Source: a virus | Length of the DNA: 64,000 bases | Virus record (IMG/VR): IMGVR_UViG_3300005918_000012 | Strand: one strand, 5' to 3' | In this document: in pieces, positions 8,990 to 39,546 of the stretch | How positions within the stretch are numbered: position 1 is the first letter of the stretch | Layout: each line of letters opens with the position of its first letter | Program-made: the position numbers and the translations under genes | Notes under the pieces: model-generated | Told to the model about the DNA's origin: nothing | What the model saw: the letters and a program-made list of their open reading frames with translations, nothing else | Database searches by the model: none

Positions 8990-9019
8990 AGACGGAGATC
9001 CCTCGGGGTCTCCGTTTTT
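8990..9019 (+). terminator. Rho-independent terminator
   Basis: agacggagatccc-tc-ggggtctccgttttt. Confidence 0.85.
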
Positions 9020-9095
9020 CTTTAATTAGTCACCCTATATAGGAACCCCGTTTTTTTTGAACGGTGGATAAATACAAACTGACAGGAGAACAGAC

Positions 9096-17686: not shown

Positions 17687-17953
17687 ATGGTAGATGAAAA
17701 AAGAGCAGGAGTTGGGAATCGTCGGGTATATTCTTATGTATCTGATGACGGGACTGTCTATTGGTCTCTTACTAAAGCCAAAAAGACTGTGTCCAATGGA
17801 CAGCGTTTAGTATTACAGAGCCGTAATGGTTCACCGTTGCTTCCTTTCATGTCATATATGAGAGATCAAGCAGCTTTGATGGATAAAGAAGCCTCCACTG
17901 AGGTCAATGATGACACTCAGTTGGAAAATAACAAACAGACGAAAGGAAATTAG
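17687..17953 (+). CDS. Hypothetical protein
   Basis: GGAG SD. Confidence 0.65.
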   Translation: MVDEKRAGVGNRRVYSYVSDDGTVYWSLTKAKKTVSNGQRLVLQSRNGSPLLPFMSYMRDQAALMDKEASTEVNDDTQLENNKQTKGN

Positions 17954-18445
17954 ATGCCAGACAAGAAAAAAGATTTAGGAACAATCAGCCAGCCGGACGA
18001 GGAGACTAAATCAGGTCTTCCCACAGGAGATGACGAGAGCAAAACAGCTTCCGAACTTCCTACCGGGGATGAAGAAGCTCCTGAAGCTGATGTACCACCT
18101 ACAGCAATTGGTGATGCCCCAGCAGATGACAAGGATGATAATCCTGATCCAAGTTTCTTAGGGACGATTGAAGAATCAGAACAGGAAACTATTATTGCTC
18201 TCCAACAGAAGCATCAGCAGATGGTGTATCAGTTGGGTAATGCAGTTCTTCAACTGTTCGGCTCAGTCGATCAAATCGGTGGGGTTTCTGAACAAATCCA
18301 AGGTGTTTACACAGGTATCGGCAAACGCTTAAATGTCGGTCCTAAAACTCGGTGGACGGTAATGCAGGACGGGTCTGTCCGTGTCGTACCGGAACAACCT
18401 GGCCCACAGGCAGTTCCTCCACAGGGAGATAAATCGGAGAAGTAA
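17954..18445 (+). CDS. Hypothetical protein with acidic disordered N-terminus and coiled coil
   Basis: AAGGA SD. Abuts both neighbours. Confidence 0.65.
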   Translation: MPDKKKDLGTISQPDEETKSGLPTGDDESKTASELPTGDEEAPEADVPPTAIGDAPADDKDDNPDPSFLGTIEESEQETIIALQQKHQQMVYQLGNAVLQLFGSVDQIGGVSEQIQGVYTGIGKRLNVGPKTRWTVMQDGSVRVVPEQPGPQAVPPQGDKSEK

Positions 18446-24582: not shown

Positions 24583-24618
24583 TTCCCCTATGATAACAAC
24601 CTCTATAGGAGGTGTGTC

Positions 24619-25858: not shown

Positions 25859-26308
25859 ATGCCCTTGTACCAATATCAATGTGGTTGCGGACTCAGATTT
25901 GAGAGTCAGGGAAGTATGGATAAACATGCAGACCCGAAAGAATGCCCGGACTGTGGAGAAATGGCTGAACGTCAGATGCCTGAAACGGTAGCTGGGGTTT
26001 TTAGTCAAGAAGTTTCTGGCCCTATTCCTCAGAACACAGGGATTTCAAGTATAGACACTCACATTGATCGAGTCATTGGACAGTCGGCTGAACAAGGCCG
26101 TAAAGCTCATGTGGTTCGTGTGGATACCAAGAAAGAGCTGCTTAGGAACAACCCGGATGCAACTGGATATGACATTACACAAACTCCTGATGGAGAATTC
26201 ACTTTGATGTCTAAAGACCAAAGGAAAGCTCGAGAAGCTGCTTTGGCTGTCAATAATAAGGCTATGAACGCCATAGAACAGGAGAGGGATAAAACCACTC
26301 CAAAATAA
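25859..26308 (+). CDS. FmdB-family zinc-ribbon protein (second copy)
   Basis: MPLYQYQCGCGLRFE...CPDCGEMAERQM. Confidence 0.85.
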   Translation: MPLYQYQCGCGLRFESQGSMDKHADPKECPDCGEMAERQMPETVAGVFSQEVSGPIPQNTGISSIDTHIDRVIGQSAEQGRKAHVVRVDTKKELLRNNPDATGYDITQTPDGEFTLMSKDQRKAREAALAVNNKAMNAIEQERDKTTPK

Positions 26309-26316
26309 TTACTAGG

Positions 26317-26460
26317 CCACAAAGGCCGTGGAAAATACATACCGACCGAAACACCGACCTATCTTTTGAGCTTTAAAACCGCCGTTGGCTGGAGAGACAG
26401 ACGAATGAACCGATAAACGAACGATTCAATTTGAGCTGAAACTCCGCAACGACTTTGTGG
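26317..26460 (+). ncRNA. Candidate structured RNA/cis-element, copy A (leader of the sheath gene)
   Basis: Outer stem ccacaaag..gtgga / tccgc..ctttgtgg, two (NNAY)7 tracts each followed by TTTGAGC, and an inner hairpin with a bulged U. Confidence 0.6.
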
Positions 26461-26486
26461 AAGAAACTAAAACAAGAGGTGTTCAA

Positions 26487-29400
26487 ATGGCATTTCCAGG
26501 TAAATCTTATGCTCCTCCGGGAGTTTACACTCAAACATTCTTCGAGAACCCTGTTTCTGGTGCTATCGACAGTTTCAAGATTCCAATTTTTATTGGTGAA
26601 GGAAACGAATTTCTGACACAGCAGAACTTGGAACTTGTCCGAGGTTCGTCCCAAAACGTCGATCAGAAAATCGTCGGTGAAGACGAAGCTGGACGAGCTG
26701 TAGTTGCTATTACCGCAGCTGGTGTTGTAGCCTTGGGTGACTTTGATGGGACTTTGGATAAAATCCAAGTTCGTAAATACCCCATCGTTGATGGTGAAGG
26801 TGTTGGAGCTGCTTCAAACAGCCGTTCGGATGTGATTGTTACCATTAACAACCAGATTACGGTTGTACGGCAGGTAACGGGAGCCACTGGTATTATTCAG
26901 TTAGCTCAAGCACCCTCAGCAACGGATGAAGTTCGAGTAACATACTTCTTCAAACGAACAGATACTCTGGTAACAGATGATGTTAGTGACCAGGTTAATC
27001 CTGATCCTGCAATCGTTCGTAGTGTAATAGGTCTTGCCGATGCAGATTCTCCTGTAGGCCAAGAAGGTTCTGTTGGAGCCTATGCTGTTATAGATTTACA
27101 CGGTGATATTACCAATGCTTCTGGTCAAGTTATCGTTCCGGCCAACAACATTCTGAACTTGACCATTGATGGTGTGAAATATACTATCACCTTGGCTCCA
27201 AGAACAGATTATACGATGGAGCAGATTGCTGCTGCCATCACAGCAGCCGGTAAAGGAACTCTGACAGCCAGTGCTTTCATTAATAATTTCGGTCTTTCTG
27301 CTTTATTGTTGAATGCCGATGGAAGCATCGTAGTGAATGCCGGGGCAGCAAATGCACCATTAGGACTCATAACAGGTTCTGCCGATACCCGAACAATAAC
27401 CTTCTATACCTTCCAAGGTCCCATCGTTGATGGTTCCAATGGTGGTGTGACGACAACCGACTCTGCTAAAGTGGTGGTCAAAGTTAATAACATTCAGGTT
27501 ATCCCGACAGCAGTGAACGGTTCTACTCGGGCAGTTACTTTAGCCTCAGCTCCAAAAGCTGGTGCAACCGTAACCATCCAATACTGGTTCAACGCCTGGC
27601 AGGATACATTTGATTACCTGCAACATAACAGTGTAACTGAGATTACCAGTTGTGGTGTAGCTCCTAATTCCCAGTCTTACATCCAAGATGCTGACTTCGT
27701 GCTTAAAGATGACAAGATCGTCTGGGGTACAGCAGCTCTGATTTCCAGTGGTGTTCATACTACTGGGGCTACGTTATTTGGGGACACTCAGATTACGGCA
27801 ACCTTGATTGACAACAAAACCTTCCTTTCGGCTTGTACCCCAGTTGTACAAAGTAGTGGTGGAATCTCTACTGATAACCGAATGGAGTTTTCCTTGGCTT
27901 TCCAGCCGACTCTTGGTAATGGACGTAACACCCCCTTGGGTCAGAGTCTATTCCAAACAGTTTCCAACGGACGAATTGATATCCCAACCAACCGCCCTGA
28001 CGTGGTGGATGTGTATTGGGGTTATGATATCCAAGATGCTCTCGACAGAGGCAAAGTTGATGTTGACAAAGTGGACGGAATTGTCGTCACTTTGGCTGAG
28101 GCCGTTCCTGCTGGAGCTTCTGTATTTGCTTCGTTCTGGTATAACCTTCTGACAGACAATGAATTCACCGCTGAGTGTGTAAACCCCGGAGCTTCCGGTG
28201 TTGGTACTTACACCATCATTGACAACGGTGACAACGATGTCTACGGAGCTACTTTCAATACCGGTTCAAAGGGAACTTCCTTGAACGGTGTGACTCTTGA
28301 ATTCCCATCAGGCTCAGAACTGACTCCTGATCTTCGTTTTGAAGGCTTGTCAGGTGATGATTTTGTAGGTCCAATCGAAGAAATCGTTACAGTACAGTTT
28401 GCATCTCGTGTGGCTACTCCTGCTAAATGGACGATGCCTGGTTCTGGTCCTTATGAGTTCATCAATGGATACTCGGATCATCTCCGAATCAAACTACATG
28501 CTGCCGATGCTACACCCGCAACAGGTCTGGATTTGGATAATCCTTCCGGACATGATGGTGGGTTCTTTGCTACCTTGATCGGTAGTGAGGTAGATTACAC
28601 TGGCGGATCTGGTGCAACCATTGGTCAAAGTTATTCTTTGGCAGCTGCCGAGGACTTCTACTTGCAGGTTGATGATGCTAACATCTTGGTTAAAACCTCT
28701 GCTACAGTATCTAATGTTGATGTCAGTTATTTTGCTGACGTTATCAATGAAGCTGCTAGTGGGCAACAAGGTCTGGCCGTAGTCGGTGGTGGTTTAAGTA
28801 ACATCATATTGCCTTCTACCGTTTCTGATATTACCTCCGACGTGAACAACTACTATGTTGGTTGGAGAGTGGTTATCGGTACTCACGCTCTCGGTGGTGC
28901 AAGTTCTGGTCAGTTCCGAACTATCACAGCTTATAATGGAGCAACTTCCACAGCTACAGTAGATGCAGCATGGACTGGTGGTGCTACTGTAGTAAATACT
29001 CCTTATTACCTTTACAACCCAGATGCACGATCTACAATGGTTGGTGCAACTGAGTTTAATGGTCCTGTAACAATCACATTAGGCGGTCATGACAAACTGA
29101 ACTTTGCCTTTAGAGGTGATGTAGAATCAATAGCCTTTGAAATTACCTTAGACCCAGGCACTTATGCTACTCCAGTTCTTTTGGCTGCCGAAGTCCAAAC
29201 TCAGATTGATGCTGCACTTACACCCGGAGCAACTGGTGCAAGTGTCGAGTGTACAGCTAATGCTGCTGCCAAGTTGCAGTTTAAACTACAACTTCCAGGT
29301 TTGAATAGTGTTAGTTACTTGCAATTCTTGAACTCCTCTGGCTCCCCAGACGATGATTTTGCAATCCTAGCAGGTTTGGACACAGCCGCATCTTTTGGTG

Positions 29401-31802
29401 GTGGTCAAGCAGCTTTGATTCAAGGTCCTATTGCTCGGTCTTATGTCTGCCCATCTGGTACAGGAGATCGTAAACTCTATGACCGCCTTGTCCTTCGTAA
29501 CAGATTGTTACCTGGTGGCGGACCAAGCAGCAGCATGGATGCTCATGATATTGAAGCTCAAACTGCTCTCCAAGTTCTTACTGGTAATACAAAAGCTGGT
29601 TTAGTATCAGGTGTGTACGGAGAAGCTGCTCGATCAGCAACCGTTCGTCCTGCTACAGTATTTGGTGATGTCGGCCTCACAGGTGATATGGATACCGATG
29701 GTGAACCTCTGGTCACGTTCTACGATGGCACAGGAACACAAGCTGCAAATGACACCTTTAAGTTCGATGTAGATGGAACTCCTGTTGAAGTAGCCTTTGA
29801 TTCTTCAGCTACTGGAGTAACGACAATTACTCCTTTAGGACCAATCTCGGATGACACTTCAATCTTGGGTCAGATCAAAGTGGCTATGGCTGCTGTCCCC
29901 GGAACTCCTTTCGGAACTGCTGCTAACATTGTTAGCACCCTAATCCTTCGTCAAGAAGGTGCTGGTATCCGTCTGACAGGTCTTGAATCCAGCAGCACTG
30001 CCAAGTTGTCTATTGGTAGCAGTAGTGCTAATGGTGTCTTAGGGTTCTCGTCCGGTGCAACTTCTCTCCGTGAGACTGTTTCCGTGAGAACCTTGGCTTC
30101 AGCTTTGATGGCTAACCGAAACAGTAACTTTACAAACTGGCTGATAGATATTGATGCTACTACAGCTTTAACCTTTTCCCTTTATGGTTTGGCTGGTGTT
30201 GAAGAAGATAGTGTTGGTGCAGAATTCTTGTACTTGCAAGATGCTCCTTCACTCATAGCTGAGTTAGGAACTCAATCCTCGATTGAGATCAAGAATACAA
30301 CCGGCCTGATTGATGATGCTTTGGCTTATCATACTGGTCTAAGTGCTAAAGATGGTGACGGAGCTTCGGGTGAACCTGCTCTTGATGGTTTCTTCGTGAA
30401 ATCAAGTGTGAGTGGTGGATCTGGTTCCGTTGATGAATCTCTCCTGAACCCCGCTGCTGATGGAACAGGTCAAGATGGTATCGTTGGTCAAACTTACCGA
30501 GATGAAGTAAGTGGCTTAACTTTCACTCTCCTGCCTCGTGGTTGGAGTACTGATCCAAACGGTCCTTGGCTCCAATACCCAACGGGTGTAAATGCTACTT
30601 TCCGTATCCAATGTGGTAAATCCTTCACAACGGATGCTAACATACCTCATAACTCTGTCAATGGTGTCGAGCTGATTGTAGCTAATACCGTCGGAGTAAC
30701 AACTGAGGATACAGCTCTGGTAGAAACCTTCGAGCGTGGTGGTGAAGAACCTTCAATAGGTGACTTGTACTACACCTCTTATGTGTACCAGAAACAAGAC
30801 TTCAATACGGGATTCTTTAGCAAGATGTCCTCCATTGAAGAAGCCTACGGTACAATCTCGACCGACAATCCTTTGTCTATGGCTTCTGATCTGGCTATCA
30901 TGAATGGTGCTGTCCTCTTAGGGCTGAAACAAGTCCCAAGAGAAACTGGTGAGTCATATGCCAGCTTGACGACCTACAGAGATGCCATCAAAGATTTGGA
31001 AGGCACATTGCCAGGTTACATTAATCCTGACATTATCTGCCCGCTTCGTGGAGACTCAACGGACCTGTATCAATACTTGAAACAGTCCAACGAACTGATG
31101 TCCTCTATCCGATACAAGTCCGAACGGACTTCCATTGTCGGTATGTCGGCAGGAAGCTTACCAGAAGATGCTGGTGATTTGGCTCAGACCTTGGGCAACA
31201 CCCGTATGCGTTTGGTTTATCCTGACATGGCTATCGTTTCAATCACGGATGCTTTGGGTACCAGTCGAGATGAGCTGATGGATGGTCCGATGTTGGCAGC
31301 AATGCTTATTGGTTCTGTCATTAGCCCGAACCTTGATGTGGCAACTCCTTGGACTGGCCGACGTTTGGTTGGTGTCCGACAACTGGGACGTATCTTAGAT
31401 GCCCCTCAACAGAACTTGTTGGCTACTAAAGGTGTCACGATTCTGGAAGATAAACCTCCGTTCATCAGAGTACGTCACGGTTTGACTACTGACATGACGA
31501 ACGTGTTGACCAAGTTGCCGACCATCATCATGATTGCAGATGAAGTCCAACGTCAGTCAAGACAACTTCTGGAGAACTTCGTAGGTATCAAGTTCTTGCC
31601 CGGCGTCCTCTCACAAGTTGAAGGCCGTATGGCAATGCTCTTGAAACAGATGGTGAATGCCAAGATCATAACAGCCTACACAGGTGTTAAGGCAACAACG
31701 GCAGCTGACGACCCTACCGTAGGTGAAGTGTCTGCTTACTACAGCCCAGTATTCCCACTGTTATACTTGGTCTTAACCTTCCACCTCCGTTCCAGCTTGT
31801 AA
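26487..31802 (+). CDS. Tail sheath protein, very large (~1770 aa) with many inserted domains
   Basis: N-terminal 'YAPPGVYTQT'. C-terminal sheath core 'ERTSIVG...RMRLVYPD...DVATPWT...KGVTILE...VRHGLTT...VSAYYSPVFPLLYL'. GAGGT SD before the ATG at 26487. Confidence 0.92.
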   Translation: MAFPGKSYAPPGVYTQTFFENPVSGAIDSFKIPIFIGEGNEFLTQQNLELVRGSSQNVDQKIVGEDEAGRAVVAITAAGVVALGDFDGTLDKIQVRKYPIVDGEGVGAASNSRSDVIVTINNQITVVRQVTGATGIIQLAQAPSATDEVRVTYFFKRTDTLVTDDVSDQVNPDPAIVRSVIGLADADSPVGQEGSVGAYAVIDLHGDITNASGQVIVPANNILNLTIDGVKYTITLAPRTDYTMEQIAAAITAAGKGTLTASAFINNFGLSALLLNADGSIVVNAGAANAPLGLITGSADTRTITFYTFQGPIVDGSNGGVTTTDSAKVVVKVNNIQVIPTAVNGSTRAVTLASAPKAGATVTIQYWFNAWQDTFDYLQHNSVTEITSCGVAPNSQSYIQDADFVLKDDKIVWGTAALISSGVHTTGATLFGDTQITATLIDNKTFLSACTPVVQSSGGISTDNRMEFSLAFQPTLGNGRNTPLGQSLFQTVSNGRIDIPTNRPDVVDVYWGYDIQDALDRGKVDVDKVDGIVVTLAEAVPAGASVFASFWYNLLTDNEFTAECVNPGASGVGTYTIIDNGDNDVYGATFNTGSKGTSLNGVTLEFPSGSELTPDLRFEGLSGDDFVGPIEEIVTVQFASRVATPAKWTMPGSGPYEFINGYSDHLRIKLHAADATPATGLDLDNPSGHDGGFFATLIGSEVDYTGGSGATIGQSYSLAAAEDFYLQVDDANILVKTSATVSNVDVSYFADVINEAASGQQGLAVVGGGLSNIILPSTVSDITSDVNNYYVGWRVVIGTHALGGASSGQFRTITAYNGATSTATVDAAWTGGATVVNTPYYLYNPDARSTMVGATEFNGPVTITLGGHDKLNFAFRGDVESIAFEITLDPGTYATPVLLAAEVQTQIDAALTPGATGASVECTANAAAKLQFKLQLPGLNSVSYLQFLNSSGSPDDDFAILAGLDTAASFGGGQAALIQGPIARSYVCPSGTGDRKLYDRLVLRNRLLPGGGPSSSMDAHDIEAQTALQVLTGNTKAGLVSGVYGEAARSATVRPATVFGDVGLTGDMDTDGEPLVTFYDGTGTQAANDTFKFDVDGTPVEVAFDSSATGVTTITPLGPISDDTSILGQIKVAMAAVPGTPFGTAANIVSTLILRQEGAGIRLTGLESSSTAKLSIGSSSANGVLGFSSGATSLRETVSVRTLASALMANRNSNFTNWLIDIDATTALTFSLYGLAGVEEDSVGAEFLYLQDAPSLIAELGTQSSIEIKNTTGLIDDALAYHTGLSAKDGDGASGEPALDGFFVKSSVSGGSGSVDESLLNPAADGTGQDGIVGQTYRDEVSGLTFTLLPRGWSTDPNGPWLQYPTGVNATFRIQCGKSFTTDANIPHNSVNGVELIVANTVGVTTEDTALVETFERGGEEPSIGDLYYTSYVYQKQDFNTGFFSKMSSIEEAYGTISTDNPLSMASDLAIMNGAVLLGLKQVPRETGESYASLTTYRDAIKDLEGTLPGYINPDIICPLRGDSTDLYQYLKQSNELMSSIRYKSERTSIVGMSAGSLPEDAGDLAQTLGNTRMRLVYPDMAIVSITDALGTSRDELMDGPMLAAMLIGSVISPNLDVATPWTGRRLVGVRQLGRILDAPQQNLLATKGVTILEDKPPFIRVRHGLTTDMTNVLTKLPTIIMIADEVQRQSRQLLENFVGIKFLPGVLSQVEGRMAMLLKQMVNAKIITAYTGVKATTAADDPTVGEVSAYYSPVFPLLYLVLTFHLRSSL

Positions 31803-31843: not shown

Positions 31844-31886
31844 TTGACAACCTCCTAGGGTCTTGGTAATATGACTCTAGGAGGTT
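31844..31886 (+). promoter_or_regulatory. Sigma70 promoter embedded in an SD-sequestering inverted repeat
   Basis: TTGACA (31844)-17 nt-TAATAT (31867). IR aacctcctagggtc / gactctaggaggtt. Confidence 0.75.
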
Positions 31887-31891
31887 TTCTT

Positions 31892-32017
31892 ATGGGTGGT
31901 CCAAAATCTAAAGCAACACAAGAAGAAATTTCAGCAGCATTTAAAACAGAGGAGCCTTACGATAATGTTGATTATCTGAAAGGTCGGTTGGTTCAGGCTG
32001 GTATTTTAGCTAAATGA
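31892..32017 (+). CDS. Small protein (41 aa, not in ORF track)
   Basis: AGGAGG SD. MGGPKSKATQEEISAAFKTEEPYDNVDYLKGRLVQAGILAK. Confidence 0.65.
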   Translation: MGGPKSKATQEEISAAFKTEEPYDNVDYLKGRLVQAGILAK

Positions 32018-32074: not shown

Positions 32075-32419
32075 ATGAAAACAAGGATTTTAAGAGCGTA
32101 TAACTCAAAAGGGCATCCTGGACTTTATAAATTACAAGTCTACGGAGGTCTTTGGCCTTTTGCAAAATGGCATACTGTTTATGCTTTTTTTAAGAAGGTA
32201 GATGGAGAATTGAAAACTCAGGTAGTTAAAGAGTGTAATCTGGACACATTACCTACAAAATGGAATGAAGGCCCAGAAGATTACATTTGTGAATTTAGTT
32301 GGTCACAGGTAGTGATGGCAAAAGAGGTCTATTATTTTAAAACAGAAAAAGTTAAAACCAAGAAACTTTATAAGTGGGAACTATTGCAAGAAACTATGAC
32401 TGACCGTAACAACGGCTAA
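32075..32419 (+). CDS. Hypothetical accessory protein
   Basis: Perfect TAAGGAGGT SD. Confidence 0.75.
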   Translation: MKTRILRAYNSKGHPGLYKLQVYGGLWPFAKWHTVYAFFKKVDGELKTQVVKECNLDTLPTKWNEGPEDYICEFSWSQVVMAKEVYYFKTEKVKTKKLYKWELLQETMTDRNNG

Positions 32420-32434
32420 CCGAGAGGCTCAAAC

Positions 32435-32514
32435 AAAAACCCCGACCATTTATTTGATCGGGGTTTTTTTGTTGGCTGGTTGACTCAAATTGAGTTTCTA
32501 GTCAACCAGTCAAC
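32435..32514. terminator. Bidirectional terminator plus a second inverted repeat between convergent genes
   Basis: aaaaaccccga...tcggggttttttt, then gttggctggttgact...agtcaaccagtcaac. Confidence 0.8.
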
Positions 32515-32520
32515 TAGAGT

Positions 32521-34044
32521 TTAACGTCTAATACTACGGAAACCACCAGCTCGTTCGGCATCAGCAATGACTTCTTGTACCAGTTTCAGATGTTCTTTGA
32601 GTCGGTATTCGAGATCTCTGAGGGCTATCTCCTCGTAGGAGTCTGAGCTTCCTTGGCCTAAATACCATAGTGTTTTTTGCGTTTTCAAACTCAAGGGTAA
32701 GATGAGTTGTGTAGGCATGTCTTCAAACTGTTTAGATTTCTTACCAGGGGTAACAACTTTAACAGCAGGGGCAAAGGTTATCGGGGCTTTGACATCCGGG
32801 GCTGAGGTAAAGGTTATTGGAAAAGAAGTTAGTGGCATAACAACTGGTTTGGGTTTCATTTTCTTCGGAGCAACATCAAGGGCTTCCAAATCTTTCAGAA
32901 TGGCATCAACATCAATACTTTCGGTAACAGATGCAACTTCTTGGTCAGAAATAGGTTCTTGATACGGGACAGCTACCCCGTTTGGTTCGTCAAGTTTTAT
33001 AGGGTCAGGTTGTGTTATTTTTTTATAACACAACCCTATTTCTTCTTTAGAAGGCATTAGTAAATCAGACAATTCTTCTTTTCTAAGCCATACTAAGAAT
33101 CGTTTTACTGATGTATAGATAGAATGCATTGTTGATTCGGCATAATCCGGGGAGATGTGTGTAAAAAAGTTCTGGACTGATTCTTTAGTAATATCTTCGG
33201 GTTTCGTTTTCTTACCGACAACGTCTGCAAAATCCTGAATGTGGTTCCCGTGGCTTTTTTGGTGAGTTTTACTTGCACGTTTGATTTTGGGGGGGAGATC
33301 TTTCAGATGTTGTTTTACCGCTGTTTTTAAAGTTTTGGTCAAATTGTCCTCCTTCACCCCATTATCTGTAGGGGTTGCTAGTATTTCTGGGAATTCTAAT
33401 GGGTTAAGGTCACTTGTTTTCGGGATGAGGTTTGAAACATATTCGTATTTTTTAGCACCTTCCATACCTGTATCTTTTATTTTGAGAGAACCTTCAGCCA
33501 AAAGTTGGTCAATCCCTTTTTTGGCATCGGTTTTTGAAACTTGGAAAAAATCCATAACATCCTTTAATGTTGGATATTGAGGATATTTATTGCCAGAGTG
33601 AGCCTGTTGATAACAGTACCGCATGTAATTCCGAACGATACTTTTTTGCCAGTCGTTTTTAAAGTTGGGAGTAAAGGGATCAATACTAGCATACCCACCA
33701 AAACATACTTTTTCAATATGCTCTCTTAATAGGAAACTTGGTTGATATCTAATGACACCAACACCATGTGTTATGTCAAGAAAACCTTTTTGAGTTAAAG
33801 ACTCCAGATATTCTTCTACAGACCCTGTTCTTAATTCTTTAATACGAATAGGGCGGTTCCAATTTTTATTTGCATACTTGGGATCTCTTAAAAACCCTTT
33901 CTGAAAAGCCTCGTTTTTCTTTTCTTTTTCTTTTTTCAAAAAAGAACAGATTTCTACATCTGTCCAGTGGCCGTGAAAGCCATCACCAGCTTGAAGCATA
34001 ACTTTGAAAAGTTCAAATCCGTGTCTGTTTATAACTTTTAACAT
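32521..34044 (-). CDS. Putative DNA-binding protein: winged-HTH-like segments plus an integrase SAM-like (core-binding) domain, with no catalytic domain
   Basis: 'PTLKDVMDFFQVSKTDAKKGIDQLLAEGSL' (wHTH-like) and 'EDITKESVQNFFTHI...AESTMHSIYTSVKRFLVWL' (int SAM-like). Only long minus-strand gene, with AAGGA SD. Confidence 0.6.
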   Translation of the reverse strand: MLKVINRHGFELFKVMLQAGDGFHGHWTDVEICSFLKKEKEKKNEAFQKGFLRDPKYANKNWNRPIRIKELRTGSVEEYLESLTQKGFLDITHGVGVIRYQPSFLLREHIEKVCFGGYASIDPFTPNFKNDWQKSIVRNYMRYCYQQAHSGNKYPQYPTLKDVMDFFQVSKTDAKKGIDQLLAEGSLKIKDTGMEGAKKYEYVSNLIPKTSDLNPLEFPEILATPTDNGVKEDNLTKTLKTAVKQHLKDLPPKIKRASKTHQKSHGNHIQDFADVVGKKTKPEDITKESVQNFFTHISPDYAESTMHSIYTSVKRFLVWLRKEELSDLLMPSKEEIGLCYKKITQPDPIKLDEPNGVAVPYQEPISDQEVASVTESIDVDAILKDLEALDVAPKKMKPKPVVMPLTSFPITFTSAPDVKAPITFAPAVKVVTPGKKSKQFEDMPTQLILPLSLKTQKTLWYLGQGSSDSYEEIALRDLEYRLKEHLKLVQEVIADAERAGGFRSIRR

Positions 34045-34114
34045 CTCTATCCTTTCGAGTTCCTGTTTCTTATTTTCTTATACCCTCTTTTTTCATTTTT
34101 ATTTAAAACAGCAC

Positions 34115-34142
34115 TTGACAGTGGCATTTTGATGGGTATAAT
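34115..34142 (+). promoter_or_regulatory. Sigma70 promoter of the MerR-VIT operon
   Basis: TTGACA-16 nt-TATAAT. Confidence 0.75.
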
Positions 34143-34160
34143 AAGAAGCATGAAAGGAGT

Positions 34161-34556
34161 ATGCCGATGAAATATACTATGAGTGAGTTAGCGGAAAGAT
34201 CCGGGGTGACAGCCAGAACGATCCGCTACTGGATTGGAGAGGGTCTCCTGAAAGGTCCTTTGGGTGGTAAAGGGCATGGAGCCTATTACACTGACGACCA
34301 TTTGAAGCGTCTCCAAACTATTCAAGAAATGAAAAATGGCCAAGGAGATCAGGAAGGGATGACTTTGAGGGATATCAAGTCTACTCAAGATGGTTGCAGT
34401 AATCTTGAGTTCAAAGTTACTCGTCCGACACACATTTGCCCTATGGATGGGGTAGACCTAATAATTGCTGAGAATATTCCGTTACATTACCGACGTGCTT
34501 TTATCCAAGCTATAGTTAATGTAGCCAATTCTATTACAAACAGACGAAGGAGTTAA
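34161..34556 (+). CDS. MerR-family HTH protein
   Basis: YTMSELAERSGVTARTIRYWIGEGLL...YYTDDHLKRLQTIQEMK...GMTLRDIK. Confidence 0.9.
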   Translation: MPMKYTMSELAERSGVTARTIRYWIGEGLLKGPLGGKGHGAYYTDDHLKRLQTIQEMKNGQGDQEGMTLRDIKSTQDGCSNLEFKVTRPTHICPMDGVDLIIAENIPLHYRRAFIQAIVNVANSITNRRRS

Positions 34557-34559
34557 GAG

Positions 34560-37070
34560 ATGAATCCATTTAATAATGAAGAAGAACCCAGAGGAAACGT
34601 CCTCATTGAAGCAGGGTCTGGTTTAGCCGTCCCCCTTACTATGCAGAGGATGGATTTAGCTGGTCGAGTAACTCCTGCAGGAGCAATGCTCAGAGTAACC
34701 CATCAATTCAAGACTGAGAGTGATGGTCCGATTGAAGCTATCTATACATTTATGTTGCCCCGGAACGGTACGCTCAGACGATTCATCGTCAAGGGTGAGG
34801 ATTTCGAGGTTGAATCTAAACTGGAAGTTCGTAAAGAAGCAAGAGCTAAATACGAAGAAGGTGTTGAAGCAGGCCATCTGTCCGTTTTGGCAGAAGCTAA
34901 CCCTGATGGTATGGTCTCCTTGTCCGTTGGTCAAGTACAACCGGATGAGTTGATAACGGTTGTGATGGATATCATATCTGGTGTGGAACTCAAGGATAAT
35001 ACTTACAGATTCCGATTCCCGTTCACTTTAGCTCCCAGTTATCATGCTAGAGCTACAACTTCTTCGACAGGGAAAATGCAACTACCGACAGATGTATTTG
35101 GTGATCTTATTTTACCTGAGTGGAAGGATGATGCCAGCGGTCTTCATCAGGTATCGTTCACGATGAATGTTGAAGCAGCCGGTAAATTAGATTGCGTCTC
35201 CTCACCATCTCATCGTATTCAAGTCAGACCAAATGGAGAAGGTTCTGTTGAAATCAAATTGTCAAGTGCCGGAGATATTCCGAACCGTGACTTGGTTATT
35301 GATGTGCAGGCTAAAGAAGTTGAAGCCTCTGTATTTGCCGATACTAAGCTCGTCTCCAAGAAGACCAGTAAAGATGATCCCAAGATTCCGAAGGATGCTC
35401 CCCGATGGGCAGCTCTTGTCCCATCGAGCCTGATTCCGAAGATGAAGACAACCCCCAGAAGAGTTTGTTTCGTCTTGGATGATTCCGGTTCAATGAGTGG
35501 AGCACCTATCAAGCAGGGAAGATTAGCTCTCCGAGCCTGTTTGTCAGCTCTTAGGCCGACAGATGAGTTTGGTCTGATGTATTTCGGATCAAATTACACC
35601 AAGTTTGATGACAACATGGCCAAGGCCACCGATGCCAACCGGAAACGGGCAGATAAATTCATCGATCCGATTGGTGCTAGTAGTGGTGGGACAGAACTGG
35701 CTGCGGCTCTTGGAGCAGCTATAAGTATTCTGGATGGTTCTGGTGGGGATATTTTCCTGATGACCGATGGCCAAGTGTTTGAGTCCAGTACCATTATTGA
35801 ACAATGTGCTGCTGCTGGGACACGAGTTCACGTTCTGGGTATTGGATCAGCCAGTCAAGATAGATTCCTTGCAAGTCTTGCTCGTCGAACAAATGGTCAG
35901 CAGGGGATGGTTGGAGTGACCGAAGATATTACTTCTAAAGCATTGGGACTTTTCAATGCTGTCAGGCAACCTGTCCAGACCAATCTGAAAGCTTATGTTG
36001 TTACAGGTAAGAAAATGGCTCAGGAGCATGAAGTAGATGTTATCTGGGACGGTTATCCTATTTTGCTGACGGATGACGGTACAACCGGTCTGAACGCCCC
36101 CACAGCTATATCTTTTACATGGGGCAAAGGGAAACAAGCCAAGAAGGTCAAAGTTCCTATGAATTACATCCAAGAAGTTCCGAATGGTCTTTCTTGTCTT
36201 CTGTATGCAGGTCGTCAGGTTGAAGATCTGGAGAATGCTATAGATGCCGCTCTGAAAGATAGCCCTGCCAGAAAAAATTCAGAAATTATGCTGAAGGCTG
36301 TTTCAACGACTTACGGGCTGGCTAGTCAAGTGATGTCCCTGATTGCCGTTGTAAAACGAGCAGGGGATCAAGCTGGACAGCAACCGGAACAGAGAGTTGT
36401 GGCCGTGGGTACTCCTGAAGGAATGGCTAACCGCCAAAATAGTAGGGGTATGCTCCGTGGGATGCTCGTTGATTCTTGTAGTGTGATGCTCGTTGATTCT
36501 TGTAGTGTGAGTGGAGGAAGCAGTACCCGTTATGGATCTTCACCATCGGTTAATTATTGTGCTCAGACCCTCGGATTTATGGATGGTGAGCCTGAGAGAA
36601 GTACACAACCACTAGGTTTCAGAACTAGAACCAAGAGCTCTAGCTTATCAAGTTCGATAACTAAGGATCTTGAGAATCTTAATGATTCCATTACTGCTTA
36701 TAGTGCAGATGAGGATTACGGTTTGGTTTGTTATATAGTCAAACTTCAATCTGATGGTGGTTTACCAGGCCTTACTCGGAAGAAACGTGCCCATGAGACG
36801 GCTATTCTGGCTTTGGCTGCTCATATGGAAGATCAGGGCAGTGATTCTCCGAGCTACAGCCTCCATATAGAGAGGATGCTGGAATTCTTGAACCATTACC
36901 TTGACCTGAATGCTGGTAAAGACCCAAACATGGCTCTTTTGGTTGGGATTATTGAAGCAGGTCAGACTGCTTTAAATGAGGATTGCAGACAGATTCTCTG
37001 TAATAGTCCAATGTCAGGTGACTCTGAAATAAACTGGGCTCACCTATCAGGTGCTTTATCCAGCCTCTAA
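34560..37070 (+). CDS. VIT + von Willebrand factor A domain protein
   Basis: VIT 'IEAIYTFMLP...EARAKYEEGVEAGH', vWA MIDAS 'FVLDDSGSMSG', 'GGTEL', 'FLMTDGQV', 'VHVLGIG'. Confidence 0.92.
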   Translation: MNPFNNEEEPRGNVLIEAGSGLAVPLTMQRMDLAGRVTPAGAMLRVTHQFKTESDGPIEAIYTFMLPRNGTLRRFIVKGEDFEVESKLEVRKEARAKYEEGVEAGHLSVLAEANPDGMVSLSVGQVQPDELITVVMDIISGVELKDNTYRFRFPFTLAPSYHARATTSSTGKMQLPTDVFGDLILPEWKDDASGLHQVSFTMNVEAAGKLDCVSSPSHRIQVRPNGEGSVEIKLSSAGDIPNRDLVIDVQAKEVEASVFADTKLVSKKTSKDDPKIPKDAPRWAALVPSSLIPKMKTTPRRVCFVLDDSGSMSGAPIKQGRLALRACLSALRPTDEFGLMYFGSNYTKFDDNMAKATDANRKRADKFIDPIGASSGGTELAAALGAAISILDGSGGDIFLMTDGQVFESSTIIEQCAAAGTRVHVLGIGSASQDRFLASLARRTNGQQGMVGVTEDITSKALGLFNAVRQPVQTNLKAYVVTGKKMAQEHEVDVIWDGYPILLTDDGTTGLNAPTAISFTWGKGKQAKKVKVPMNYIQEVPNGLSCLLYAGRQVEDLENAIDAALKDSPARKNSEIMLKAVSTTYGLASQVMSLIAVVKRAGDQAGQQPEQRVVAVGTPEGMANRQNSRGMLRGMLVDSCSVMLVDSCSVSGGSSTRYGSSPSVNYCAQTLGFMDGEPERSTQPLGFRTRTKSSSLSSSITKDLENLNDSITAYSADEDYGLVCYIVKLQSDGGLPGLTRKKRAHETAILALAAHMEDQGSDSPSYSLHIERMLEFLNHYLDLNAGKDPNMALLVGIIEAGQTALNEDCRQILCNSPMSGDSEINWAHLSGALSSL
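36461..36508 (+). repeat. Exact in-frame 24-bp tandem duplication (MLVDSCSV x2)
   Basis: gatgctcgttgattcttgtagtgt repeated twice. Confidence 0.95.
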
Positions 37071-37092: not shown

Positions 37093-37127
37093 AAAGGAGT
37101 GTTCTCTCACGAGGGCACTCCTTTTTT
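37093..37127 (+). terminator. Rho-independent terminator ending the accessory island
   Basis: aaaggagtgttctc-tcac-gagggcactcctttttt. Confidence 0.85.
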
Positions 37128-37247
37128 CCATTTTTGGGTTTCGTTATATTGCTTATATTGCCCGTAAGAGTGAGGGTTAGAAATTTATGACTCTCCCTTC
37201 ACCTGTTAAATAGGTGTGGATCGAAACCGTAGATGGAGGTCTTTATA

Positions 37248-38084
37248 ATGCCGAATCTTGATAACAACACAGCAAACACCGGAGTAGGTGGAACATCGTA
37301 TATGTACGATTACGGGACAAGCCCGAACACCAGAACTGCGGTTAGCCAGAAAGTTCGTATTCTGACACCTCATGTTGGAAATACAACTACGATGGCTCAG
37401 ATGGGTGTGCTGTCTCAATTTAACCCCTCACAAAGCAGAACTGTTGAGCCTGTACGTGGTATAGGTTTCGGGGACAAGGTTTCCGAGCTGGTACCTTCCG
37501 TAACAGAACCGACAACTGGTAACTTTGAACGAGCACTCTTATACCTGTGTAACTTGTGGCAAGCCACTGGTTATGCTTCTGGTGTAGATGGCCCTGTTCG
37601 TTCCTTAGCTCATCACAAATGGCCTTTCGATGTTGAACAGCAAGTCGTGTTCAGTTCATTGGCTGATGAGGATCTAGGCGTTGCAAACATAGGTACTGGA
37701 AATGATGCCGGTACTTTCGATGGTGGTGTTAGCCAAGTCAATTACGGCAAGGTTACTCCAAATGAGAGCGTTACTGTTCCTGGTAATGGCGATCAAGGAC
37801 ATTCAGCCATCATTACAGTATACGAAGCCTGCTGGTTCAATAGCTGGTCAACCACTTTTGCCAAAGACTCTGGCCTTATTATGGAATCTGGTGATGTGAC
37901 CGTTACTGACGTACATGACTTTGCTTCTATCTATGGTGAGTTCATGGCTACTGGTAATGACCCAACGGTCGGACAACTTGGTTCCATTCGATATGCCGAA
38001 TCAGGCTTCGATGTAGCCGGTGTTGGAGGCCGAGTAAACGTAGGTGGTGAAGGCCAAGGACTCGTAGCTTTACAACAACCATAA
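37248..38084 (+). CDS. Tail tube protein
   Basis: 'GVLSQFNPSQSRTVEPVRGIG...ELVP' and 'TVYEACWFNSWSTTF...IMESGDVTVTDV' tube pattern. GGAGG SD before the ATG at 37248. Lies between sheath and chaperone/TMP genes. Confidence 0.85.
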   Translation: MPNLDNNTANTGVGGTSYMYDYGTSPNTRTAVSQKVRILTPHVGNTTTMAQMGVLSQFNPSQSRTVEPVRGIGFGDKVSELVPSVTEPTTGNFERALLYLCNLWQATGYASGVDGPVRSLAHHKWPFDVEQQVVFSSLADEDLGVANIGTGNDAGTFDGGVSQVNYGKVTPNESVTVPGNGDQGHSAIITVYEACWFNSWSTTFAKDSGLIMESGDVTVTDVHDFASIYGEFMATGNDPTVGQLGSIRYAESGFDVAGVGGRVNVGGEGQGLVALQQP

Positions 38085-38125
38085 ATCCATACTTTACTCT
38101 AACTGGGTAAAGTACAGGTAAACCT

Positions 38126-38277
38126 GGGAACAATCCAGCAGCCTGTTAAAACCGACATACTGACTGATAGACAAAAATTTTGAGCTTTTTACCTCCCCTC
38201 TTGGGATGGTTAGACAAATAAACTGACTGACTAACATGCTCATCTTGTGCTATCTAGGGCTGCTAAGGTTGTTTCCC
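38126..38277 (+). ncRNA. Candidate structured RNA/cis-element, copy B (leader of the tail chaperone gene)
   Basis: Outer stem gggaacaatccagcagcc / ggctgctaaggttgtttccc, two (NNAY)6 tracts followed by TTTTGAGC and TTGTGC, and an inner hairpin with a bulged U. Confidence 0.6.
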
Positions 38278-38301
38278 TTTACAGAAGGGAAATACGAATA
38301 A

Positions 38302-39546
38302 ATGGAACAGATTACACTTGATGCTCTGGAGAGTGCCCTCGCCCCTATCGAAGCCATCGGTAAAAGTGAGATTACTTTCAATGTAAACGGGTCGGACTCG
38401 AATACTATCGTGACGCTACGGATGCTTCTTCCAGAAGAAGGAATCATGGCTCAGAGGTATGCTTCGGAGGTCTTAGATGATAAGAATCAGAAAAGCCACG
38501 ATGCTTTGGAGTATCTGGAACGGTTCAAGATTGGCCTTCTTTCTTATTCTCTGGTGGCTATAGGTCCTCTCGATCTTCATGATGTTAAATACATTGAGAC
38601 AGGGGAGAAACTAGAGACAGGAGTAGCCATTAAGGAACCTACACATATTGCTATGCGTAGACTACTCCTTCGATGGACTCAGGATATCCGAACTCGGATG
38701 TTCAACAAACACTCTGAATTATTAACCAGAGTCGAAATGGCTGCCGAGAAAGCTATTGAGTTCGACCCTGTTGATCTAGCTCTTGAGATTGAAAGAGTTG
38801 AGAAACGTCTTGAAATGTTAAAGACGGCTCAGGAACAAGATCCAAATGCTGCTCCGTCCATTATTCGGGATCAGGTTAAAGACATTGTTAAAATGGATAA
38901 AATGGATTCTCAAGGTCGTCGAGAAGCCGTTGATAAATTGAGGGATAAACAGGCCGGTATAGTTACACCACAGGCGGAAGAACCAGTAGCCTCTGAGCAA
39001 GCTCCCGAGCAAGCTCCTGTAAAAGAGTCTTTTTATGAAGATGTTGGCACACCTCCTCCTGAACAAGAACCACCCCAAGCTCAACCAGAACCACTCCAAG
39101 CTCAACCTGAACCTCAAACTGCTCCCCAACCTACTCCACAAGCTCCGCCAGCATACCCAGATCAGTCGTTTGTTGATACAGGGGATACTGATGGGATGTT
39201 AGCTGCTGTAGAGGCTGAGAACCAGCGTTTGCTGGCTGCTCGTGCCGGAACTTTACCACCTGCTCCCGGGGCTATGAATGCAATGAGGGCAGAAAAGGTA
39301 GCCCAACAAGCACCTCACTTGGCTGCCCGAGTAGTAAGTGAAGAACTGCAATCTGAGGAACTCCAGATATTACAAGCTACTCGTAAAGCAATGGCCGAGC
39401 CTACAGAGAAGCTAGGAGATGTTGATGTTTTCAAAGCACCTACGGAAACCTTGGATCGTCGTCCCCCTGCTGATGCTCCCGTTAGATCGGCTGCTATAAA
39501 TAAATCTAACAATCCTCGGTTCACTCCAGTTAAAAAAGGTTTGTAA
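38302..39546 (+). CDS. Putative tail assembly chaperone with a long Pro/Gln/Glu-rich tail
   Basis: Position between tube and tape measure. N-terminal 'IVTLRMLLPEE...LERFKIGLLSYSLVAI'. Confidence 0.55.
   Translation: MEQITLDALESALAPIEAIGKSEITFNVNGSDSNTIVTLRMLLPEEGIMAQRYASEVLDDKNQKSHDALEYLERFKIGLLSYSLVAIGPLDLHDVKYIETGEKLETGVAIKEPTHIAMRRLLLRWTQDIRTRMFNKHSELLTRVEMAAEKAIEFDPVDLALEIERVEKRLEMLKTAQEQDPNAAPSIIRDQVKDIVKMDKMDSQGRREAVDKLRDKQAGIVTPQAEEPVASEQAPEQAPVKESFYEDVGTPPPEQEPPQAQPEPLQAQPEPQTAPQPTPQAPPAYPDQSFVDTGDTDGMLAAVEAENQRLLAARAGTLPPAPGAMNAMRAEKVAQQAPHLAARVVSEELQSEELQILQATRKAMAEPTEKLGDVDVFKAPTETLDRRPPADAPVRSAAINKSNNPRFTPVKKGL

Follow-up and report, generated by a model that had tools for sequence, protein, structure and literature searches.

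A tandem leader of hairpins, adenine-periodic tracts and CUUGNGCU boxes before tail genes of a huge salt-lake phage

Introduction

Why would a phage genome carry, in two gene-free stretches, long runs of tetranucleotides in which an adenine returns at every fourth base? This question is raised by a window of 64,000 nucleotides (the whole stretch of DNA analyzed here) from IMG/VR record IMGVR_UViG_3300005918_000012. An earlier note on this DNA described a novel, two-fold-symmetric structured element at 26317-26460 and a second copy near 38126. The window is part of a huge phage from salt-lake metagenomes. The phage is uncultured and roughly 500 kb in size, with related contigs that reach 435-552 kb and a 133-kb relative rated 25% complete, and all 15 public runs containing window DNA are DNA metagenomes from salt lakes. 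Relatives were absent from the phage GenBank collection except for one 55-bp match.

Results

The two elements flank a sheath-to-tube block

Element A lies in a gene-free stretch (26309-26486) between a 149-aa Zn-ribbon gene (25859-26308; PF09723) and a 1771-aa gene (26487-31802). The latter begins at AUG 26487 behind the Shine-Dalgarno sequence AAGAGGUG (26474-26481), within a plus-strand initiation region at 26474-26489. Homologues of the last 450 residues of the 1771-aa protein contain the tail-sheath C-terminal domain PF17482, and one also contains PF04984; the label of sheath therefore holds through PF17482 in these homologues. Element B lies in a second gene-free stretch (38085-38301), which is followed by a gene at 38302-39546. 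Just 5' of copy B ends a 283-aa gene (37233-38084) whose product resembles tail-tube families in protein-language-model features only, and which we take forward as a putative tail-tube gene, purely as a lead. The earlier note had placed the element before tail genes, and this placement agrees with the domain evidence for the sheath gene and, for the tube-like gene, with the model features only. Copies A and B bracket the sheath-to-tube block. We tentatively read element A as the 5' leader of the tail-sheath gene and element B as an intercistronic leader of a post-tube operon.

Between the sheath gene and the tube-like gene, 32075-37070 has the appearance of an inserted cassette. Its contents are a small ORF; on the minus strand, a protein with an integrase SAM-like domain (32521-34044); a MerR-family gene (34161-34556), preceded by the perfect promoter TTGACA-16-TATAAT (34115-34142); and a VIT/VWA protein of 836 aa (34560-37070). 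At 31844-31894, a sigma-70-like promoter (TTGACA-17-TAATAT with TG) overlaps the hairpin ACCUCCUAG...CUAGGAGGU. This hairpin would mask the Shine-Dalgarno sequence of a small ORF that starts at AUG 31892, and would do so in sheath-gene read-through transcripts only; a transcript from the promoter of this ORF itself would be without the hairpin 5' arm. The same upstream words, ACAAACAGACGAA(A)GGA, precede the genes starting at 17954 and 34560 (17928-17953 and 34535-34559) and form a short AGAC-type stretch immediately 5' of the Shine-Dalgarno sequence.

Upstream of the tube-like gene (37093-37235), an intrinsic terminator (37093-37124) is followed by TTCGTTATATTGCTTATAT. Also in this region are the motif TTCGTTA-N-CTTATAT, a hairpin of the form CC..CACCU/AGGUG-U-GG and a 13-nt stretch of AUCGAAACCGUAG, and the usual Shine-Dalgarno spacing is lacking. 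TTCGTTATATTGCTTATAT resembles TTCGGTAG-N5-CTATAT, which is found 5' of the sheath gene in distant relatives, and may be the late promoter of the phage group. Weaker versions precede a 385-aa gene (24590-24608) and lie within the terminal part of the Zn-ribbon gene (26251-26266).

Each element is a direct tandem of two modules

The individual features that the earlier note listed at 26317-26460 are all present when the sequence is read. Their arrangement, which had been described as a two-fold-symmetric internal loop, is instead a direct tandem of two hairpin-tract-box modules, as seen in the leaders of relatives and in an alignment of modules. On the plus strand, element A starts with hairpin H1 (26312-26331; CUA-GGCC-acaaa-GGCC-g-UGG), which overlaps the 5' strand of a long-range stem (26317-26332). 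In relatives L002-L005, H1 shows a compensatory change from G:C to A:U (GGCC/GGCC to GACC/GGTC). Tract 1 (26333-26364) is predicted to be unpaired and has A at 26333, 37, 41, 45, 49, 53, 57 and 61. It is followed by box 1 (26365-26372), which reads TTTGAGCT in DNA and UUUGAGCU in RNA and matches the family consensus YUUGNGCU. Hairpin H2 (26379-26392; CC-GCC-guu-GGC-u-GG), previously termed the inner hairpin, is the hairpin of module 2, and its CC-stem-(U)-GG form recurs in relatives with many different stem sequences. Tract 2 (26393-26429) has A at every fourth base over 26393-26421 and then a short linker, after which come box 2 (26430-26437; UUUGAGCU) and hairpin H3 (26443-26461; UCCGCAA-cgacu-UUGUGGA).

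The proposal of seven NNAY-type units per arm is correct in that A occurs each 4 nt across 26335-26362 and 26395-26422 (in the first run of copy A at 26337, 41, 45, 49, 53, 57 and 61), while the unit CGAA breaks the rule of a final pyrimidine. Similarly, the proposed outer stem has a sound basis in sequence: CCACAAAG (26317-26324) is the exact complement of CTTTGTGG (26453-26460; CUUUGUGG in RNA), and GTGGA (26328-26332) is able to pair with TCCGC (26443-26447). The stem, however, competes with local hairpins, since 26317-26332 is the alternative partner of the H3 bases 26443-26460.

The predicted recurrence near 38126, with different stem sequences, was found as copy B in 38085-38301, also on the plus strand. 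In the 5' part of element B (38124-38147; compare relatives L088 and L089), CUGG-gaacaau-CCAG forms a local hairpin and GGGAACAA...GCAGCC is the 5' strand of the long-range stem. Tract 1 (38148-38178) begins with the units AAAC, CGAC, AUAC, UGAC, UGAU and AGAC and leads to box 1 (38179-38186; UUUGAGCU). The 5' arm of hairpin H2 (38191-38210; ACC-u-CCC-...-GGG-au-GGU) is like the 16S anti-Shine-Dalgarno sequence. Tract 2 (38211-38243) begins with AGAC, AAAU, AAAC, UGAC, UGAC and UAAC, and its final GCUCA is complementary to box 1. Box 2 (38244-38251; CUUGUGCU) is followed by a 3' part (38258-38295) in which GGCUGC..GGUUGUUUCCC forms the 3' strand of the long-range stem. A TTGAGC box had been proposed for each arm; three of the four boxes are indeed UUUGAGCU, but box 2 of copy B is CTTGTGCT, a form that fits the consensus (C/U)UUGNGCU seen in relatives.

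The bases just 5' of copy B box 2 (38236-38243), which are complementary to box 1 (UUGAGCU), read AUGCUCA in the window and AGCUCAA in relatives L088 and L089. They provide a further possible stem around module 2; no such stem was seen in copy A or L092.

A boxless, single mini-version of the module occurs at 9046-9095 on the plus strand. It consists of a CC-stem-U-GG hairpin (9046-9067) and then seven NNAY-type units (28 nt). These units include the Shine-Dalgarno sequence and lead into the start codon, AUG 9096, of an 81-aa DUF5659 gene (to 9338). Upstream are a strong terminator (8990-9018) and then promoter-like TTAGTCACCCTATATAGG, and the arrangement is kept in relatives L118 and L119. 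DUF5659 was considered as a co-occurring factor and set aside, as it is present in contigs both with and without tract modules and thus does not discriminate between them.

The leader is an old element, fixed in genomic position

We compared the window with 7 viral and 80 metagenomic loci encoding the sheath N-terminus (49-90% identity) and with 15 loci for the gene after copy B. A sequence-only covariance model built from one module gave four matches in the window (E 2e-6 to 3e-10), all on the plus strand and all in the training set; the next match had an E value of 0.25. Exactly four modules, two at A and two at B, were found in each of three related contigs (133, 72 and 40 kb). Beyond these, 20 matches came from 16 further sheath loci; every one is on the gene strand, and most are directly 5' of the sheath gene. 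Close relatives have the sheath-gene leader, as do 14 or more metagenomic relatives at a greater distance, and two-module B-type leaders persist where the neighbouring protein is 43-44% identical. More distant relatives keep the box and hairpins and have short tracts only, the long ones being absent. Conservation in relatives, which the earlier note had named as decisive, is thus borne out by the scan and by comparison of the leaders, which stay at the same genomic positions with different stem sequences. The element is old and fixed in genomic position.

The novelty that had been claimed for the element survived a search of the whole window against Rfam 15 at gathering thresholds, which returned 0 matches. 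Permissive Rfam scans of both elements yielded chance-level matches only (TLS-PK6, 15 bits vs 44 needed; SNORD43, 13.7 vs 45; HTH-XRE, 13.7 vs 49.8), and full-text literature searches gave no description of this element. We consider the leader an undescribed conserved RNA element and a candidate new family for RNA motif databases.

In relatives L031 (700-780) and L012 (625-700), a GIY-YIG-type gene (MAKIYRIYQAKAPSGKIY...) has inserted between the two-module leader and the sheath gene, and in L013 and L033 a related gene lies immediately 5' of the sheath gene. T4 segG is reportedly placed in a similar way beside the gene 32 operator.

Hairpins vary in sequence around a constant base

Across relatives, a module consists of a hairpin closed by CC...(U)GG, an unpaired tract of about 30-37 nt made up of (N)(G/N)A(C/U) units and the box (C/U)UUGNGCU, and a MAFFT alignment of 27 modules gave the consensus GGnUGGnnAGACnGACGnAnnGACnGAnnGACnAACnnCUUGAGCU. 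Within the box, position 5 is free and GCU is fixed, and each box is followed by a hairpin within 5-10 nt. The inner stem showed 5-6 pair types at each of its first four positions, above a constant CC/GG base and with a 3' bulge that is usually U; these pairs were counted by script from the stem base in 37 hairpin calls, which include a few overlapping placements of one hairpin. RNAalifold gave no structure on the MAFFT module alignment because hairpins of unequal length are not aligned in it. The hairpins were more stable than shuffled sequences (Wilcoxon p 1.3e-6). The antisense strand was equally stable, so the hairpins alone are no proof of a role at the RNA level.

In the leaders of relatives, the 5' arm of the hairpin is often of CCUCC type and the 3' arm of GGAG type. 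Many module hairpins begin with CACCUCCU (5' arms in L006, L024, L029, L032 and L036), a sequence identical to the usual 16S rRNA 3' end. Given this identity, each such hairpin amounts to an intramolecular mimic of Shine-Dalgarno/anti-Shine-Dalgarno pairing. In L024, the match of the hairpin arm extends past the real Shine-Dalgarno sequence of the sheath gene, and L028 and L032 look alike by eye.

The tracts are conserved at one base in four

In the 64-kb window, the two elements alone contain runs of at least six NNAY units; shuffled windows held about 2.3 runs of at least five units per strand. In 32 modules from relatives, the spacing of successive A-pyrimidine dinucleotides was exactly 4 nt in 124 of 202 cases, and the autocorrelation of A, C and G peaked at lags 4, 8 and 12. 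The tracts of these modules are 42% A and 15% U, with GAC, AGAC and GACA as the commonest words.

We then compared tract columns among six close relatives with a sheath identity of 82-90%. The periodic A varied in 1 of 14 columns, compared with 30 of 42 for the other unit positions (9, 12 and 9 of 14 columns each for positions 1, 2 and 4). The third base of the tetranucleotide (A) is held constant, and the fourth (C/U) is held more loosely. These alignment columns show the tracts to be under purifying selection on one base in four. The constancy of A also rules out that the tracts are a mere remnant of slipped repeats.

The tract has a preferred start and length. The junction GG-N0-4-AGAY after the hairpin was present in 18 of 34 modules, compared with 2.5 expected and a maximum of 8 in 500 shuffles. 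From the first AGAY to the box the distance was mostly 30-37 nt (mode 32; 34 modules), and the tracts hold about 7-8 units. Tract length was taken from these junction distances, as automatic measurement by constrained folding was noisy. The register slips by 2, 3, 5 or 6 nt within some tracts and has no fixed phase relative to the box, both of which argue against a rigid ring; the earlier note had suggested a ring-shaped protein of 6-7 subunits.

A long-range stem competes with local hairpins

The hairpin-1 region pairs with the last 45 nt of the leader more strongly than with shuffled 3' parts in the A and B groups. Duplex z scores were -2.2 to -3.0 in the A group and -3.9 to -5.7 in the B group, with -2.8 for L027 and -1.9 for L024, and were near zero and non-significant in several GC-rich relatives. 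The true Shine-Dalgarno region of L024, GAGGUGCCC, is the partner of the 5' arm GGGCACCUC. The alignment rows of the window and of L002-L005 differ in the 5' strand by an A-to-G change and an indel, and in the 3' strand one U is lost, with 8 pairs still remaining; the six-sequence MAFFT alignment misplaces a 1-nt indel in the 3' strand. The bases of the 5' strand also form H1, itself with the G:C to A:U exchange.

Constrained folding with ViennaRNA gave -40.1 (A) and -65.4 (B) kcal/mol for the local-hairpin fold, compared with -34.1 and -60.1 for the closed fold, so that in each copy the closed state with the outer stem is less stable by 5-6 kcal/mol. By these energies, the architecture in the earlier note is one of two rival folds and is not the one predicted as ground state. 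In copy B, UUUCCC (38272-77) can alternatively pair with GGGAAA (38287-92), which holds the likely Shine-Dalgarno sequence of gene 38302-39546, and the same logic applies in L092. The closed fold of copy B frees the GGGAAA segment from UUUCCC in the constrained folding.

Known repeat-reading systems resemble the leader in part

TRAP leaders of Bacillus trp genes contain 11 G/UAG triplets with 2-3 nt spacers. Like them, the present leader has a run of short repeats with a partly fixed unit in an unpaired region, where binding would choose between folds; unlike them, it has 4-nt NGAY/NNAY units in two tracts of about 8 units split by a hairpin. Its tracts do not contain the 9-11 (G/U)AG triplets with 2-3 nt gaps of a TRAP site, and GAG and UAG are not enriched in them. 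The HutP site in Bacillus hut mRNA has two sets of three UAG with 4-nt spacers. Two repeat sets are common to both systems, and the HutP oligomer reads its sets with two faces and remodels a downstream hairpin; the motif, number and spacing differ, and no terminator is involved here. In phage Mu, the small zinc-finger protein Com opens a translation-inhibiting hairpin in mom mRNA. The parallels are the zinc-ribbon gene immediately 5' of leader A on the same strand and the hairpin of copy B that masks the ribosome-binding site, although Com binds one specific hairpin and not periodic tracts. By this analogy the Zn-ribbon protein of the window might bind the leader, which is pure conjecture.

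Tetranucleotide recognition is known from the eukaryotic splicing factor Nova, whose KH domains read YCAY clusters. These share with the tracts a clustered 4-nt unit whose third base is A and whose fourth is a pyrimidine, but Nova is eukaryotic and its units are not contiguous at an exact 4-nt pitch. The distal-face (ARN)n signature of Hfq does not fit, as the A autocorrelation peaks at 4, 8 and 12 and not at 3, 6 and 9, nor does that of CsrA/RsmA, as the hairpin loops are variable and without GGA. Compared with lambda nut and HK022 put, the order of box and hairpin is present, the loops are not conserved, and no Rfam antitermination family was matched. With the box taken as a -35 element, no sigma-70 -10 element lies at 16-18 bp from either box.

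In the T4/RB69 gene 32 operator, a folded 5' nucleation element (a pseudoknot) precedes an unstructured stretch of over 40 nt, which bears UUAAA/UAAA repeats and extends towards the ribosome-binding site, and the single-strand binding protein reads the operator cooperatively (PMC535899). The hairpin followed by an unpaired periodic tract repeats this order of a folded 5' element and an unstructured repeat stretch. The gene 32 operator differs in its UUAAA/UAAA repeats, its pseudoknot and its single module, and it autoregulates the gene for the single-strand binding protein, whereas the genes downstream of the present leaders encode tail sheath and tail-assembly proteins. By analogy, the gene 32 operator would be the closest documented logic, and TRAP and HutP the closest repeat-reading oligomers. 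In standby sites (MS2 coat; CA-repeat tails, PMC5934652), an A/C-rich single strand likewise lies 5' of a ribosome-binding site that is itself structured, as do the tract and box of copy B 5' of the UUUCCC/GGGAAA hairpin with the Shine-Dalgarno sequence and their counterparts in L027 and L092. Unlike the present leader, standby sites require no register, box or conserved hairpin base.

Discussion

Collectively, we favor the reading that the element is a cis-regulatory mRNA leader that controls tail-gene translation and to which a single-strand RNA-binding protein binds, either as an oligomer or cooperatively, and we give this reading a probability of roughly 0.4. We infer that the element acts as RNA, that it is bound by protein and in which direction control runs. 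Sense-strand-only occurrence, a position tied to the start codon, pairings with the ribosome-binding site, and two sites per at least 133 kb argue for an mRNA element rather than a DNA site. A protein best explains the one-in-four A, the start at the hairpin junction, the length of about 8 units and the conserved box; period-4 adenine selection fits an RNA-binding protein with repeated pockets.

Such a protein would be an oligomeric or cooperative single-strand RNA binder with one adenine pocket per 4 nt. It would dock at the hairpin/AGAY junction and cover the tract, with the box setting the limit. Occupation of both tracts would shift the balance between two leader folds: an open fold with local hairpins, one of which masks the ribosome-binding site in copy B and several relatives, and a closed fold in which the 5' and 3' ends of the leader pair. 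This balance would set the translation, and possibly the stability, of the sheath and post-tube tail-assembly mRNAs together. Coordinated expression of tail genes, as suggested in the earlier note, may be read from the position of the element. The narrower version, in which the tracts are the operator of a new oligomeric phage or host protein that would read every fourth base, an adenine, and occupy both tracts of about 8 units at once, and stem closure switches sheath and post-tube translation on or off, is doubtful.

No RNA-binding protein that reads adenines at a 4-nt spacing is known to us. Among the window neighbours, no candidate binding protein was found other than the Zn-ribbon (PF09723) and DUF5659 proteins, neither of which is, to our knowledge, known to bind RNA. 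The Pfam families of Hfq, CsrA (PF02599), S1 and TRAP (PF02081) were not found in the three related contigs, but these represent at most 25% of a genome and the absence carries no weight.

The main rival to a protein-bound leader is a protein-free ribosome standby site or translation enhancer, in which the tracts would give 30S subunits a place to wait beside a structured ribosome-binding site and the hairpins would only stabilize the mRNA and mask Shine-Dalgarno-like purine runs. The U-poor tracts, predicted to be unpaired, do lie 5' of a hairpin that adjoins (A) or contains (B, L027 and L092) the Shine-Dalgarno sequence, the mini-version at 9046-9095 leads directly into a start codon, and the genes served need many protein copies. 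CA-repeat tails 5' of a sequestered ribosome-binding site strongly raise translation, but their effect is maximal at 16-18 nt and requires no defined sequence (PMC5934652). Standby therefore leaves unexplained the one-in-four base selection of the tracts of about 32 nt, the conserved 8-nt box and the CC/UGG hairpin base, and we regard it as somewhat unlikely. The bracketing of the sheath-to-tube block by A and B would also suit a processing signal, with an endoribonuclease cutting the box, downstream products beginning at a protective 5' hairpin, upstream products trimmed to a 3' hairpin, and the abundance of the sheath-tube message uncoupled from its neighbours. The box would be an exposed U-rich site, as the tracts are U-poor (15% U), and it is closely followed by a hairpin. 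This explanation is unlikely, given that neither the period-4 adenines nor the need for two modules is accounted for and that a box with position 5 free and GCU fixed fits no RNase consensus known to us.

A box followed by a hairpin, twice, at the head of long operons and at two sites only per at least 133 kb, would also be expected of an antitermination signal in nascent RNA of the type of lambda nut, a box with a hairpin, or HK022 put, a pair of stem-loops, allowing read-through of very long tail operons, and the box and following hairpin persist in distant relatives that lack the tracts. The hairpin loops, unlike boxB, are not conserved, the box is unlike boxA, and the tracts are left unexplained, which makes this origin quite unlikely. 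As noted above, the hairpins fold equally well on both strands, and TTGNNC is like a -35 hexamer, as expected if the element acted in DNA, whether as tandem late promoters, as activator sites or as a different protein-binding site, with the hairpins forming cruciforms. However, there is no usable -10 at 16-18 bp, and neither box was called as a promoter-like site; among the distant relatives, the best -10 candidate lies at 19-22 bp, with the gap filled by a covarying hairpin. Moreover, a general late promoter would need more than the 4 boxes found in 133 kb, a different promoter-like motif (TTCG(G/T)TA-N-CTATAT) occurs 5' of the tube gene and 5' of distant sheath leaders, and a strand-asymmetric period of 4 mismatches the DNA helical repeat. 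A DNA-level role is thus very improbable. The closed two-arm fold and the absence of coding potential are what a free-standing processed ncRNA or a small-molecule riboswitch would show, but the element has no promoter/terminator pair of its own, its conserved bases are single adenines in long loops with no compact ligand pocket, and its position is bound to the downstream start codon, leaving only a very slight chance for either.

Several other explanations were rejected on reading the sequences. A leader peptide or start-stop ORFs are incompatible with a period of 4, which does not match codons, and AUG-UAG occurs in one sublineage only. A tract-tract duplex through tandem G·A pairs fails in AT-rich members. 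A MITE is contradicted by 'inverted repeats' that are not the same in A and B and by the ancient positions; for a mini-CRISPR array, the repeats are non-identical and the 'spacers' periodic. Pairing of the box to 16S rRNA would be matched by the CUUGUGC variant alone, and relatives do not share the similarity to boxA.

Almost nothing is known about how huge uncultivated phages control their genes, and this element is well defined, widely conserved, about 140 nt long and easily synthesized. Selection on one adenine in four is unusual and points to a mode of recognition that is undescribed for bacterial or phage RNA-binding proteins. The element offers a handle for finding the binding factor and for learning how phages set the stoichiometry or timing of their tail proteins. 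If the narrower version, with a new oligomeric protein, is true, a dedicated post-transcriptional timer or dosage control of tail building would be common to a large clade of phages with genomes of 400-550 kb.
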